Of a stretch of 64,000 nucleotides of DNA, positions 28,498 through 32,936 are shown piece by piece. The stretch spans positions 704,001 to 768,000 of the forward strand of contig OZ240248.1 of NCBI GenBank assembly GCA_965198235.1. The letters run 5' to 3'. Positions within the stretch are counted from its first letter, which is position 1. Every line of letters starts with the position of its first letter. Both the position numbers and the translations under genes were made by a program. Under the pieces are notes generated by a model. It was not told the DNA's origin, did no database searches, and saw only the letters and a program-made list of their open reading frames with translations. Source of the DNA: Candidatus Poribacteria bacterium (GTDB lineage Bacteria > Poribacteria > WGA-4E > WGA-3G).

Positions 28498-28507
28498 ATT
28501 TTTTAAT

Positions 28508-28614
28508 AGCCATCAGCCGTCGGCTTTCAGCCATTAGAGGGTGAGGTTACAAACCTCGCGAGCGGCGGTTACTGATAGTTCTCACTGCGAAGCAAGCCGA
28601 AGGCTGACAGCCAT
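28508..28614. repeat. Heptamer-flanked REP-like element
   Basis: AGCCATC/AGCCGTC/GGCTTTC arm, central GAGGTTACAAACCTC hairpin, complementary GCCGAAG/GCTGACA arm. Confidence 0.6.
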
Positions 28615-28618
28615 TCCT

Positions 28619-29467
28619 CTAGTCGCGGGCAATGGGTGCTCCGACGAGATTACCCCATTCCGTCCAACTGCCATCATAGTTGCGGACCTTTTCATATCCG
28701 AGCAGATACTTCAACACAAACCATGTGTGCGATGAACGTTCACCAATACGGCAATAAGCAATTGTTTCCTTATTCTCATCAACGCCTTCACCGCCGTAGA
28801 TGGCTTGCAGCTCGTCGTGAGACTTAAAGGTACCGTCTTCAGCCACAGCTGTCGCCCAGGGGATGTTCGCTGCGCCGGGGATATGTCCACCGCGTTGCGC
28901 GGTTTCGTTCATGCCGGGCGGTGCGATAATTTCGCCGGAGAATTCGGCAGGCGAACGGACATCTACAAGGTTAATAACGCCTTGTTCAAGCGTGGGTCGG
29001 ATATTATCCTGTGTGGCGCGAACGTTGTCATCAGGGAATTTCGCCTGATATCCTGTGCTCGAATGATCTGGAACGTCAGTGACAAGTTCTCTACCTTCAT
29101 CGAGCCATTTTTGACGACCCCCGTTCATCACCTTCAACAGACTTTCATCGTGTCCGTAATAGCGGAATTGCCACAAAGCATACGTTGCGAACCAGTTATT
29201 GTTATCTCCATAAAAAATAACAGTGGTATCGGTGGCGATACCGCTGTCATTGCAGAGCACCTCGAACTGTTCTTTCGTGAGGATATCGCGTCGAACCTGA
29301 TCGCACAATTGTGTCTGCCAATTGAGTCCCACTGCACCAGCGATATGTCCTTCAGCATATGCTGAAGTATCAACATCAACCTCAAGCAGTCGGATGCCAG
29401 CATCACCACCATGCTCAGCGACCCATTCCGTACTTACCAAAACATCAGAATTTGCGTAATCAGCCAT
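28619..29467 (-). CDS. Tandem-rhodanese sulfurtransferase (SseA/CysA-like)
   Basis: VSTEWV, GHIAGA, VDVRS, GHIPGA, YCRIGERS, YDGSWTEW. Confidence 0.93.
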   Translation of the reverse strand: MADYANSDVLVSTEWVAEHGGDAGIRLLEVDVDTSAYAEGHIAGAVGLNWQTQLCDQVRRDILTKEQFEVLCNDSGIATDTTVIFYGDNNNWFATYALWQFRYYGHDESLLKVMNGGRQKWLDEGRELVTDVPDHSSTGYQAKFPDDNVRATQDNIRPTLEQGVINLVDVRSPAEFSGEIIAPPGMNETAQRGGHIPGAANIPWATAVAEDGTFKSHDELQAIYGGEGVDENKETIAYCRIGERSSHTWFVLKYLLGYEKVRNYDGSWTEWGNLVGAPIARD

Positions 29468-29574
29468 CAAAATCTTCAGGCTAGGGACTCCATGCTTTAG
29501 CATGGAGAGAAAAGCCTGTCTCCTAAAAGTTGAAAGTTAGTTAATTGTAAAGCTATATCCTCTTGTTGTATCTT

Positions 29575-30594
29575 TTAAGATATAGCGATAGGTTTATATC
29601 TAAAATTAAGTCTTCGTAATATCTTACAATCCTTAACTTTAGCATTTCGTGTCAAGCGTTTACCACCTTCTATAGGTTGTAAACACAAATAAGTGTTCAT
29701 ATACCCGCATACAACTGCTAAACCATGTTTGACATGTTTCACCAGTGTACCTTTGCTAAGTCCAAGACACTTCGTGCCGCCATATCTCGGTCTTTTACCA
29801 CCTTTCTGTGGTAGTTGCTTATGTAGACCCCGTCTTTCTATAGGTATAGGCAATATACAAAATACGCTGATGTTGTCTACTATTGCATTGCCGCCGACCA
29901 TATGATACGCTAAGCACCAACTGTCCACACAATGCACATCAAAAGACTCCGCAGTCTTGTTAGAATTCTTTTTTAGTCCGAGTTCATCACGAATCTCTTT
30001 AGTCTCGTGGCCTCTTCGTGTGGAGAGTTGCCATCTTTTTCGGACATTTTTGTAGAACCACTCTTTGCCCACTTCAAGCGGACTGAACGACTGATTTCAT
30101 TTCCGCTGACACTGCTTCGTACGTGCCTTAATATCTTCTACACATACGTATGTGACCGGAAACATCTTACCAAGCCAGTCAAGAATGCGTAGTTTCCAGT
30201 CCCACCTTGCACGTGTACCAGCGGGTAGCCTCTGTTTATTCACAAGTTTGTTCATGCGATTTTTGCGATTAGGACACTTTCTGGAACGCCTCCCTCTACG
30301 CAACTCTCGCCTCTTTGCAACCTTCTTACCAACTTTGTTATGTGCATCAGCCTGCACATTCAAGTATGTATGTGCTTCGGACTTCACCGTAAAGCCTTCC
30401 TTCTTACTACCAGGATCTACACCTACTGCTATTTCCTGGTCACAGCGTTTTGAAGGTTCTACGTTCAGCCTCACACAGAATACCCCATTCTTCCAAAAGG
30501 GGGTTGCCTTCCCTGATTTAATCCACTTCGCTGCCCTGGAAGGCCGGGTTGGCATCAATGGATTTTGATTCTTATCAACAACTGGGACAAACAT
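29575..30594 (-). pseudogene. isrB: IsrB RNA-guided nickase (PLMP + RuvC, no HNH) with one in-frame TGA at 30097-30099
   Basis: PLMP, RuvC-I VGVDPG, Arg-rich bridge RRELRRGRR, RuvC-II VEDI, FSPLEVGK, RuvC-III HCVDS; 339 codons; ORFs 30097-30639 and 29575-30072 share one frame. Confidence 0.88.
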
Positions 30595-30599
30595 CGTTT

Positions 30600-30801
30600 G
30601 TAACTTCCTTGCGGATATATACTTCCCCATCGAGATCACGAAATCAGAGAGGAATTAGACTTGGGGAGCATCCAAAACATCTGACTGCGTGCCACCACAA
30701 GACTTCGCGATATTTTACTCTATTCAGCATCTTACGTTGCAGGGTCCCGACTTGGCTGTCGATATTCTACAATCTCCACGCTTTAGCGTGGAGTTACTGA
30801 A
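30600..30801 (-). ncRNA. omegaRNA scaffold
   Basis: About 200 nt between the element 5' end and isrB; 5' TTCAGTA pairs with TGCTGAA (30729-30723) around the end hairpin; GGATGCTCCCCAAGTCT...CTCT...GATGGGGAA segment resembles omegaRNA 3' parts. Confidence 0.75.
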
Positions 30802-30871
30802 ATTGTATCCCTGTTAAGACCTATTCCTATAGGCATACAAAGTGTGCCCTAAAAGGACGATTCTTATTTAT

Positions 30872-30900
30872 ATTATACATATCTAACCCCGATTTGTCAA
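30872..30900 (-). promoter_or_regulatory. Consensus sigma70 promoter reading into the IsrB element and sulfurtransferase-pterin genes
   Basis: TTGACA-N17-TATAAT exact. Confidence 0.75.
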
Positions 30901-31039
30901 ATAGAAATGCGATTTTGCCACCATTTCGTCTATTTTTGCGGAATTTACCAAGTATTCCCGACAAAAATGGTTTATAGTAAAATCCAAAAATATCTCTCAC
31001 TGCAAGGCAACTTTACGAAACAACATCCCCTCCCATCGC

Positions 31040-31145
31040 TGGCGAGGTTTCCTGCAGAAATCCGCAGAAATACCCAAGTAATACGCAGAAACACCCTATC
31101 AAAAACCCCTATCAAAAACACCCCTATCAAAAACCCCTCGCCACC
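31040..31145. repeat. REP-like hairpin with internal CCCTATCAAAAA(CA) tandem units
   Basis: GGCGAGG...CCTCGCC arms; interior matches the reverse complement of 59380-59440. Confidence 0.6.
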
Positions 31146-31285
31146 TATAGTGTATAGGTAATTGCGGGCTTTACTATAAGTCAGGGATACACCCAGTTAC
31201 TGGATCGAGAATCTTCCAACAAAACTCAAGATTGATAAGGTAAAATTAGAAGGCAAAAGAGGAGGATAGAAGCAATGGTTTCAGG

Positions 31286-31320
31286 AAAAAACAAGCCACG
31301 CCAAAAGATTGACGCGGCTT
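31286..31320 (-). terminator. Intrinsic terminator after the DUF4159-like gene
   Basis: AAGCCGCGTCAA/TTGGCGTGGCTT stem followed by GTTTTTT. Confidence 0.65.
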
Positions 31321-31361
31321 ATTGTTTATAGGTAGTTATGTTCTGTTCTTAATTAGAATTC

Positions 31362-32936
31362 TTACAGCCGACTGGCAGCACTCGGTGCCTTTTTCGGGGC
31401 ACTATCTATCTCTCCATCGGCGAGGGCACTTGCAGGAATATAGTTGCTGTAATCCGAGATATTTCCGTGTGTCACCGCGTAGACGACGATGTTAACGAGT
31501 TGTCGTGCAGCAGCTGGAGCGAATTCATCTAAAATTCTATTCCGATCCTGATAGTGACCGAAGAAAGGTTTCTGAACGGCACCATCCATCACATGTATCA
31601 TTGCTTCTGTATCAACAAGAACAGCCAACCGATCATCAATAAAAACGCCTTGCAACTGACGATAGGGACCGTGATGGAGAATGGTAGACCCAATTTTCCG
31701 GACGGGGAAACGGAGGGGTCCGTTCAGCTCATAGAAAGCGTTGTAAATCTCATGATCTTGAGGGATAGTCGTGAGATGATATTCAGGAAGAATTTGCCGC
31801 AAGACGCGCAGCGCAGGCTGCATTGCCGCTTCCGTGTTTCCGTGTGTCGGCATATAGATAAACCCGCCGCGGTTGATGATATATTCGCGGATTCGCTGCG
31901 CCTCCCGGTCGGTATAACCGAAGGAAGGGCGATCCCCGCTTACATTCCAGATATTGCCACCTAACAGTCCGTTCTGGAGTTGCACTGAGGATTTGGGAAC
32001 CGGCTCCATAAAGATAATCGGTGACTCAAAAAACGCTGCATCCGTAATGTGGACTGCGTCAACCATTTGGGTTTCGACACCCGTTTCTGCATTCAGCGAC
32101 TTAACTAAATAGGGCAGACCTGCCCCGAATCGGAGATGTCCGATGCCGCTGCCTCATATATCGAGGTTCGGATGCAATGGGTCGTCGAGACGGACGAGGT
32201 TGAGTCTCCCAATAATCTCTGTAGCCCGACCTTGAATGATGGCACCTGGGCTTCCCTTCGGAAGTTGTGGGACACCATTACCGAGAACCATGTTCTCTGT
32301 TACGTCCGACAACGAGGCATTGATATTTGCAGCACCTGCTCCCTCTACGAGCGAGTTCAGCCTGCCACGGCTTTGTGTCCGCCCTTGTCCAAGACCGGAT
32401 CCAGAACCGAAAGCCCCGCGCCCGGTACCGCTACCTAAACCGTCACCGATACCTGTACCTATGCCATCCGTAATTGCTCCGCCACTGGGCAAGCCTGCGG
32501 TGGGTAATCCATCTGAGGCTGTCGGTAGTTTTGCAGCCGTTGACAGCGGTTGCGCAGTATGCTGGATCACGGGAGACGCACTCGGAACTTTGATTTGCTG
32601 TCCTCTTGGGGCAGCTGATGCACTCGCCATTAGTGACACCGCAGGTGCTGCAGTTGAGGACGATCTCAATGCGCGTGCGACTGTTGTCCGACGCTGCGTC
32701 GTCTCAGTTTGCGGAACGACTCTCAAATCTGGAACAGGGGTTGTTACAACGGCTGGTTTCTGAATAACATCCCTTTTTGCTGCTTGGGGTGATGTGACAA
32801 TGAAGAAACTCAAATCAATGGTATCTTGTGCCTTCTGTGGTTGAGATGAGATCGCGATGTACCCTACAACGACTGCGAGGCAGACGTGTATGACGAGCGA
32901 TACCATCCATACGAGAGGTATTCGGCGCGATTTCAT
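31362..32936 (-). CDS. Membrane-anchored DUF4159-like protein, one frame with an internal TGA (32154-32156): candidate selenoprotein or pseudogene
   Basis: N-terminal TM (SLVIHVCL), P/A/G-rich linker, then RLNLVRL..DI*GSG..GLPYLVKSLNAETG..FFESPIIFM..YIINRGGF..HEIYNAFY..NIVVYAVT; the two ORFs are in frame; AGGAGG RBS. Confidence 0.75.

Follow-up and report, generated by a model that had tools for sequence, protein, structure and literature searches.

Among insertion sequences of the IS200/IS605 superfamily, the ISC1 elements are non-autonomous: they carry a single gene, isrB, and depend on a TnpA transposase that acts in trans. The ISC1 elements described by Kapitonov et al. (2016, PMC4810608), ISC1-1_MA among them, have subterminal hairpins, no inverted repeats and no target duplication, begin with a GTCA- or TTCA-like 5' end, and insert directly 5' of a four-nucleotide target, N|ATGA, which was verified by empty sites. 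The solved IsrB of Desulfovirgula thermocuniculi (DtIsrB, structure 8DMB; Hirano et al. 2022, PMC9581776) combines a PLMP motif with a split RuvC and TI domains. Its omegaRNA carries the guide 5' of the scaffold, and the target-adjacent motif (TAM) lies 3' of the target. In IscB, studied by Meers et al. (2023, 10.1101/2023.03.14.532601), the guide is encoded outside the transposon end and needs transcription from outside, copies are biased towards the orientation of the upstream gene, and one motif is read by both TnpA and the nuclease.

The element described here shares this ISC1 anatomy, the DtIsrB domains and the same order of guide, scaffold and TAM. It lies in a stretch of 64,000 nucleotides, here called the window, from a Candidatus Poribacteria genome (assembly GCA_965198235.1, contig OZ240248.1, positions 704,001 to 768,000), where it immediately precedes the start codon of a rhodanese (sulfurtransferase) gene. 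All locus coordinates below are window positions, and the features lie on the minus strand. The proposed explanation, which we hold with a probability of about 0.8, is that an ISC1/IsrB element has settled on the ATGG that opens the rhodanese gene, and that it would draw its guide from the host leader, home to its own site and supply the gene with a ribosome-binding site from its end. The element class, the N|ATGA target, NTG-type TAMs, the role of residue Q326, the outside-transcribed guide and the motif shared by TnpA and nuclease are all known already. The part worth following is the bias of such elements towards start codons, together with a candidate ribosome-binding module built into their end.

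The element and the gene behind it

The object is a non-autonomous ISC1/IsrB element of 1,334 bp (29468..30801), delimited by paralogous copies, by the empty sites of relatives and by contigs that cross both junctions. It spans from TTCAG (TTCAGTAACTCCACGCTAAAGCGTGGAG) at 30801 to ...GAAGATTTTG (in longer form ...CTCCATGCTAAAGCATGGAGTCCCTAGCCTGAAGATTTTG) at 29468. It belongs to a repeat family with 18 BLAST places in the same genome, whose paralogous copies have sequence in common from TTCAG or GTCAG to ...GAAGAWTTTN and have unrelated left flanks. The isrB gene (29575..30594, 340 codons) is recognised by Pfam RRXRR (PF14239, E 3.7e-32) and by paralog alignment, and its product matches DtIsrB over query residues 4-338 (E 2.6e-33). 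The PLMP motif is present, and the RuvC D/E/H..D residues are intact (GVDPGSK, VCVEDIK, HCVDSW). The HNH segment is absent from this protein and present, by alignment, in the one IscB of the genome. That sole HNH-bearing IscB lies at G000:C1:1473377-1474294, with a 652-aa open frame. The genome carries seven RRXRR loci in all and six intact open reading frames (ORFs) for Y1 TnpA (PF01797), none of which lies within this element.

Between the left end and isrB lies an omegaRNA scaffold region of 207 nt (30595..30801), compared with the 284 nt used for DtIsrB. When ten copies from the same genome were aligned, RNAalifold predicted 44 pairs in this region, 28 of them with compensatory change. Three of the ten copies have no ORF, and the region is retained in protein-less miniature copies. 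A search of Rfam over 28500-32000 gave no family match at E up to 1, so the omegaRNA cannot be assigned to HEARO or any other model. Both ends of the element have subterminal imperfect hairpins, and there are no terminal inverted repeats and no target duplication at empty sites. The hairpin at the omegaRNA-proximal end (CTCCACGC-TAAA-GCGTGGAG, 30774..30793) lies 8 nt inside the end and shows compensatory changes among the ten copies; its counterpart at the TAM-proximal end is an inner TnpA-type hairpin (CTCCATGC-TAAA-GCATGGAG, 29507-29488). The protein-less, two-ended miniatures of this family (for example C1:4757286-4757722 and C1:4077018-4077201) resemble the palindrome-associated transposable elements (PATEs) and miniature inverted-repeat transposable elements (MITEs) derived from IS200/IS605 (PMC4810608). 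Unlike those, many of them retain the whole omegaRNA, and solo guide-distal ends persist on start codons. An earlier reading of the window from its letters alone, hereafter the sequence-only reading, had recognised an IsrB-omegaRNA transposon of the IS200/IS605 superfamily, and the Pfam and 8DMB matches, the structured omegaRNA and the hairpins bear this out.

In the assembly, the isrB frame is interrupted by a TGA at 30097..30099, which aligns with Trp in all five intact paralogs. The region was compared with four public runs: one that is probably the source DNA, another DNA run, and two RNA libraries from two studies. All four have C at 30097 on the plus strand, giving TGG, at full depth, and in a 1,262-nt contig of run X1 this C is the only difference from the assembly. 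Since TGG is read in every run, isrB is probably intact in nature, and the TGA is probably an assembly error or a rare variant. A selenocysteine reading of the TGA was rejected in view of the Trp of the paralogs and the TGG of the runs. The assay once suggested for a repaired IsrB would probably need no repair.

Directly after the element end at 29468, the rhodanese ORF opens with ATGGCTGAT at 29467. The gene (28619..29467, 282 aa; PF00581, E 3.1e-30) has an N-terminus that is conserved in relatives, and it is followed by a 97-aa ORF without Pfam match, a double PTPS gene and a GTP cyclohydrolase I gene, the last two identified by Pfam. It had been described as the first gene of a pterin cluster, which agrees with these neighbours. 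The predicted order of leader, omegaRNA, isrB, paired end hairpins and gene start was likewise accurate.

Upstream of the element stands a sigma-70-type promoter that matches the consensus at 12 of 12 positions, as had been claimed (30872..30900: TTGACA at 30900-30895, a 17-nt spacer, TATAAT at 30877-30872). No other match within 29300-31100 is as good. Among 19 empty loci of relatives, all have the -35 box and 18 the -10 box, so the promoter is the host's own. A host leader of about 64 nt (30802..30865), ending ...AACAGGGATACAAT at 30802, leads from it to the element. There is no terminator-like site on the minus strand within the element. Contigs from the RNA libraries of the two studies cross the junction between element end and gene (X4, 29418-30789; X18, 29200-30118), and upstream of about 30864 RNA depth falls from 118 to 4, 2 and 0 in X18 and from 1.5 to 0 in X4, whereas coverage by both DNA runs goes on. 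The libraries thus hint, weakly, at a transcription start at the predicted promoter and at read-through into the gene; the contigs, however, show neither RNA 5' ends nor strand, and DNA may contaminate RNA libraries. The host promoter is the only evident source of a guide-bearing transcript and would, as the sequence-only reading proposed, drive guide expression. Such drive is expected for this class and not new, because Meers et al. argue that IscB guides need outside transcription.

Two further observations concern the surroundings of the gene and promoter. The end hairpin contains an ATG at 29503 that shares the frame of the rhodanese ATG and would lengthen the gene by 12 codons (MLKHGVPSLKIL); the longer rhodanese ORF from 29503 appears in the ORF list, and the feature is not conserved in other subfamilies. 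Upstream of the promoter, at about 31036-31150, are short repeats like GGGGTTTTTGATAGG, some in tandem and others dispersed, and 39-nt pieces of this region are found on several unrelated contigs of public runs.

Junctions, target and guide

Comparison with the genus defines the right junction. In 63 of the 64 other genus genomes, homology at the rhodanese locus begins exactly at the A of ATG, and none of them carries the element; the 64th genome, which is 86% complete, has no match to the locus. Because homology begins at the A and no relative carries the element, the right junction reads N|ATGG. Of the 65 genomes compared, one alone has the insertion.

The left junction is less simple. In eight of nine relatives compared, the leader aligns to ...ACAAT and is then followed by 19 extra nucleotides, which include AGGAG(G/A), before the ATG. 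The anchor pattern was unmatched in the ninth (L087), yet its printed leader shows AAGGAGG before ATG. The window is without these 19 nt, at 30802|30801. This loss is not an assembly artefact, because a contig from an independent run (X7, 30767-30878) crosses the left junction; public-run contigs cross both junctions. The AGGGA near the end of the window's leader is found in relatives as well, 19 nt further from the ATG, and since the real AGGAG lies nearer, AGGGA is not the native Shine-Dalgarno (SD) sequence. The sequence-only reading had placed the insertion between the host ribosome-binding site and its start codon, and had named different junctions in empty-site orthologs as a refutation. 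Its right junction holds, and its left junction does not, the native SD having been part of the 19 nt that are missing here. That removal of the element gives AGGGA-6 nt-ATG is literally true of the sequence.

In one possible order of events, the 19-nt deletion came first, AGGGA became the SD, and the element then inserted cleanly between AGGGA and ATG. Other copies sit 5-7 nt after an SD-like word, which the 6-nt spacing of AGGGA fits. In both miniature copies compared with relatives, insertion was clean between the SD-spacer and ATG, with nothing lost (gaggtgaaacaaca|ATG and gggaggtaaaa|ATG). The leader also appears indel-prone among species, since genome G014 (L022) is without a different part of it, of about 35 nt. 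However, all eight close relatives with an alignable leader retain the 19 nt, and a deletion that removed the operon's only good SD would have been less likely to persist alone than after the element had brought a substitute. An empty-site contig of run X1 with the native AGGAGG also speaks against this order, though it is probably from a co-occurring relative. The end of that contig (reverse complement AGGAGGCTTAACATAAAA before ATGG) was considered as a polymorphism within the strain and rejected, variant letters at depth 49-64 over 29232-29296 pointing to such a relative. We consider a deletion before the insertion less probable than not.

It had further been suggested that insertion and precise excision toggle translation of the rhodanese-pterin cluster, in the manner of phase variation. 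Precise excision would leave AGGGA-6 nt-ATG, TnpA genes are present in the genome, and excision in IS200/IS605 is precise (PMC4810608; 10.1101/2023.03.14.532601). Yet none of the 63 matching relatives carries the insertion, and there is no sign of recurrent gain or loss at the site. With the native SD gone, the excised state would not be ancestral, and the homing logic of the family works against stable empty alleles (10.1101/2023.03.14.532601). Even with the element present, transcription seems to continue into the gene. The excised joint, 29467 to 30802, does not occur among the contigs of the four runs, a result that is uninformative because contigs drop rare variants. The toggle is thus unsupported and very improbable.

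The target is best seen across subfamilies, whose flanks read ATGG, ATGA, ATAA or GTGA. In the rows compared, the pentamer that follows the end hairpin is TCCCC, TCCCT or TCCTC where the flank is ATGG, TTTCC or TCTCC where it is ATGA (with one ATAA exception), TTTTG where it is ATAA and CTTCC where it is GTGA; that of the window is TCCCT (29487-29483). The residue aligned with Q326 of DtIsrB follows the same division. It is Arg in all three ATGG-flanked copies with a readable C-terminus (the window, L070 and L081), and Gln or Thr, never Arg, in all 35 parsed ATGA or GTGR copies. Hirano et al. (PMC9581776) report that Q326 is the residue which recognises the fourth TAM base: the wild-type protein cleaves TTGA and ATGA but neither TTGG nor ATGG, whereas the engineered mutant Q326R accepts G and cleaves all four. 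The window IsrB, compared from sequence alone, thus has naturally the residue of that mutant.

Since flank, pentamer and Q326-equivalent residue covary, ATGG (29464..29467), which comprises the rhodanese start codon and the first base of codon 2 and at whose A the relatives' homology starts, very probably serves TnpA as its target and IsrB as its TAM. The earlier proposal that the start codon serves as TAM is in this way made very probable by the empty sites, by the three-way covariation and by published motifs, namely N|ATGA for ISC1 and NTG, NTGA/TTGA and NTGG for DtIsrB and five other IsrBs (PMC9581776). The ISC1 target of Kapitonov et al. is N|ATGA and that of most relatives of the window element ATGA, whereas the window has ATGG; the copy fits the published target and TAM data with G replacing A. 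The TAM of GstIscB, TTCAT, corresponds to ATGAA on the iscB strand (10.1101/2023.03.14.532601). A simple base-pairing rule between pentamer and target, parallel or antiparallel, was rejected, as its register could not be settled, and the relation is given as covariation only.

In a sister subfamily (L131, L136, L130, L132, L153, L164 and L165) the flank is GTGA and the pentamer CTTCC. In two of its seven copies a long ORF (550 or 368 aa) opens at the GTG, and one of these two ORFs starts like a signal peptide. This suggests that GTG start codons are used by this subfamily too. The NTG TAMs of IsrB and a September 2026 review (PMC13565253) hint that OMEGA elements favour motifs of translation-initiation regions.

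By the IscB/IsrB model, the final 16-20 nt of the leader (about 30821-30802, ...TCTTAACAGGGATACAAT) are the presumed omegaRNA guide. Because the guide is encoded outside the transposon end, it would need host transcription. A guide drawn from the operon's own leader might also be expected if IsrB and its omegaRNA had been co-opted to bind or nick that leader and so regulate the operon, and exapted TnpB regulators do exist. In the occupied locus, however, the guide match is followed by scaffold DNA and not by a TAM. The copy has kept its catalytic RuvC residues and both of its ends, its family is large, mobile and present in many copies, and the insertion is found in one species only. Domestication is accordingly the most improbable explanation considered, and the locus is read here as a mobile ISC1/IsrB element.

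Start codons and the guide-distal end across the genus

A covariance model of the 67-nt guide-distal end, searched over the genus genomes, gave more than 1,000 matches in 60 of 61 of them. Among the 30 best loci, one per genome, 27 are followed by ATG, and in 15 of the 30 the junction ATG opens an ORF of at least 150 aa. The window's own genome has 46 end-like matches, 22 of them with ATG at the junction; 13 of these 22 open an ORF of that length, and one further opens the gene for ribosomal protein S18. The same is true of 40 of the 82 distinct ATGR-type ends and of 32 of the 70 full-length copies that could be parsed among 80 from named Poribacteria records. At randomly sampled ATGR sites the corresponding share is 12-18%, internal Met codons included, and binomial P values against 0.18 range from 2e-5 to 2e-10. 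The survey of how often copies adjoin ATG starts, which the sequence-only reading had asked for, thus returns 46-59% against 12-18% by chance. The genome holds 80,903 ATGR sites, and with about 4,500 genes, by our own estimate, true starts make up at most about 6% of them. A scan of genome contigs for other phyla returned 80 loci, all of them from Poribacteria.

The junction ATGs are real starts, because N-terminal domains and signal peptides begin there. Pfam domains (adh_short, Epimerase, Ldh_2, Lar_N, DUF3417, DHDPS, MatE, S18 and others) align from profile positions 1-5 onwards, starting within the first 5-69 residues of the junction ORFs, and other junction ORFs begin with signal peptides. 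The genes behind these ends include the essential ones for S18, PheT (the PheRS beta chain) and UppS (undecaprenyl-diphosphate synthase). The left flanks of start-codon copies end in an SD-like word and 5-7 nt, and two copies that lie off start codons stand in 5' untranslated regions (5'UTRs), just ahead of the SD of the next gene.

The copy ahead of the S18 gene of the window's genome (G000:C1:4527855, rpsR) is 5'-truncated and has an irregular junction (compare L183-L187). It was rejected as a clean example: the seven nucleotides AATTGAT that precede its ATGG occur also in the empty site of five relatives, and for that reason the copy does not derive from plain N|ATGG insertion. The leader of those relatives (AAAGGAACAG...AATTGAT) was considered as a relic of an end without its hairpin and likewise rejected, AAAGGAACAG occurring 26 times in the genome.

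IsrB relatives with 41-56% identity, on viral contigs of IMG/VR, have the same layout. An adjacent ORF was accepted there if it lay on the same strand, measured at least 120 aa (at least 60 aa if running off the locus end) and started no more than 75 nt from the isrB stop. Of 41 usable viral loci, 27 have such an ORF, and 25 of the 27 begin with ATGR. By strict automated criteria, an SD with a hairpin 15-30 nt before the ATG accompanies 10 of the 27 viral ORFs and 3 of 232 other ORF starts in the same loci. Because phage genomes are gene-dense, only this last comparison carries weight for the viral set.

At its guide-distal end, the window element carries an SD-like AGGAG (29520..29524) that does not code in this copy. 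Immediately 3' of it stands a two-tier hairpin (29477..29518), which is supported by RNA folding and covariation and has the outer stem CAGGCT/AGCCTG. The AGGAG lies 52 nt upstream of the ATG (55 nt from the A of AGGAG), and the 3' foot of the hairpin is 9 nt from the ATG. The 12 nt that precede the ATG after insertion (CTGAAGATTTTG) are without an SD-like word, and the AGGAG of the element end is the only SD candidate left in the window. The organism has a canonical anti-SD, and about half of its crude gene starts have an SD-like word, with a modal spacing of 5-8 nt. Over 82 distinct sequences, 91.8% of cells in the hairpin are paired and nine of ten pairs change on both sides; the outer stem alone has 98.5% of cells paired, with all four pairs changing on both sides. 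None of 500 shuffles, and none of the slid controls, scores as high as the actual structure. An SD-like word stands at that place in 79 of the 82 ATGR ends and is missing in 13 of 21 other ends, and all ends with the TTTTG pentamer (GATAA-type flanks) are without it.

These observations raise the possibility that the hairpin places AGGAG close enough to the ATG to function, so that the end would be a portable ribosome-binding site. Several points weigh against this, or against the wider explanation of which it forms part. The alignment of the ends was fitted to the model, which favours the pairing counts. The SD-like word is present as often on start codons (39 of 40) as off them (30 of 31). 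AGGAGG forms part of the isrB coding sequence in most ATGA subfamilies, where it encodes an Arg-rich tail and need not be conserved as an SD. In viral relatives, 0-41 nt separate the isrB stop from the host ATG. Some of the pattern may therefore come from coding constraint or from stop-start coupling. The hairpin, perhaps including its outer stem, may be kept for TnpA acting on DNA rather than for a role in RNA. Selection by itself should also produce some of the start-codon bias, as genic insertions are lost and copies need transcription. Guide use, nicking and the TAM are drawn from homologs, and the transposition mechanism leaves the 19-nt leader loss unexplained, two other copies being without such a loss. 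On balance, the chance that the end works as a portable ribosome-binding site falls a little short of even.

Two observations bear on how isrB ends in related copies. In the ATGA subfamilies (C1:1584115, 4647858 and 4954359 of the same genome, and relatives), the isrB stop is a TAA in the loop of the end hairpin. In the viral loci L210, L216 and L234, the isrB stop abuts the host ATG (TAG|ATG), a layout that suits translational coupling.

Much of this could also be passive. The window would then hold an ordinary ISC1 copy, start codons would accumulate copies through the purging of genic insertions and the guide's need for transcription, AGGAG and the outer stem would serve isrB coding and TnpA, and the host gene would be translated otherwise. 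The N|ATGA target was published without a link to start codons in the available text of Kapitonov et al. (PMC4810608), and for IscB it has been proposed that copies are retained where they are transcribed in the same orientation (10.1101/2023.03.14.532601). The coding role of AGGAGG in most subfamilies and its equal presence on and off start codons agree with this, and by a rough estimate of our own about one fifth of non-disruptive ATGR sites would be start codons. The observed shares nevertheless exceed that rough one fifth as well as the level expected by chance. S18, PheT and UppS lie directly behind an end with no other SD within 5-12 nt. The window subfamily, furthermore, keeps AGGAG although it is non-coding there, whereas sister ends with GATAA flanks keep the hairpin without the word. 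A purely passive origin of the pattern is possible, at odds of roughly one in three, by our judgement.

Neither the start-codon bias nor a translation module at the guide-distal end was found in print, although supplements could hold a statement. The available text of the ISC1 paper (PMC4810608) describes neither the bias nor an AGGAG-hairpin module, and the words 'start codon' do not occur in it or in that of the 2026 review (PMC13565253). They occur once, in another sense, in that of Meers et al. (10.1101/2023.03.14.532601), whose work on GstIscB concerns an HNH-bearing protein, unlike the IsrB of the window, and is there silent on start codons and downstream translation.

Proposed mechanism and meaning

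A Y1 TnpA encoded elsewhere in the genome would have moved the element as single-stranded DNA and inserted it directly 5' of ATGG. The element itself would specify this target, as the pentamer beside the end hairpin tracks it, in keeping with DNA pairing of the sort by which TnpA cleavage is guided, and the TAM-reading residue of IsrB tracks the same base. The element faces the same way as the gene, for which reason a single transcript from the host promoter would cover leader, omegaRNA, isrB and the rhodanese operon, and the final 16-20 nt of the leader would serve as the guide. Guide and ATGG together make up the joint left by precise excision, so IsrB and its omegaRNA would be expected to nick the emptied site and thereby provoke re-copying of the element, a homing model known for the IS200/IS605 superfamily (Meers et al. 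2023, 10.1101/2023.03.14.532601). With the native SD gone, the AGGAG-hairpin end would be the likeliest source of a ribosome-binding site for the rhodanese gene. Relatives of the element may be tolerated on the start codons of essential genes because their ends would supply one in the same way.

A wider and more tentative proposal is that IsrB/ISC1 elements are specialised to park on start codons, the NTG of their target and TAM (ATGA, ATGG or GTGA) being the start codon itself, and that the end pays for the seat with a translation module. Such a seat would put the guide under a host promoter. The module would be either an AGGAG brought near the ATG by the hairpin or an isrB stop set against the host ATG. 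The host gene would come to depend on the element end, and relics of ends would then persist as 5'UTR modules, even at essential genes. This proposal we consider somewhat less probable than its negation.

The locus is a clean natural example of IsrB logic, in which the host leader would provide the guide and the TAM would coincide with the transposase target, and the natural Arg/Gln switch at the TAM-reading residue matches the engineered mutant. If the systematic seat on start codons and the element's own module are real, they would explain why the TAMs of IsrB are NTG-like, and would show how a transposon can sit in the most sensitive bases of essential genes without killing its host. Hundreds of 5'UTRs in one bacterial genus would then be transposon-derived, and the module would be a compact, portable candidate translation element.

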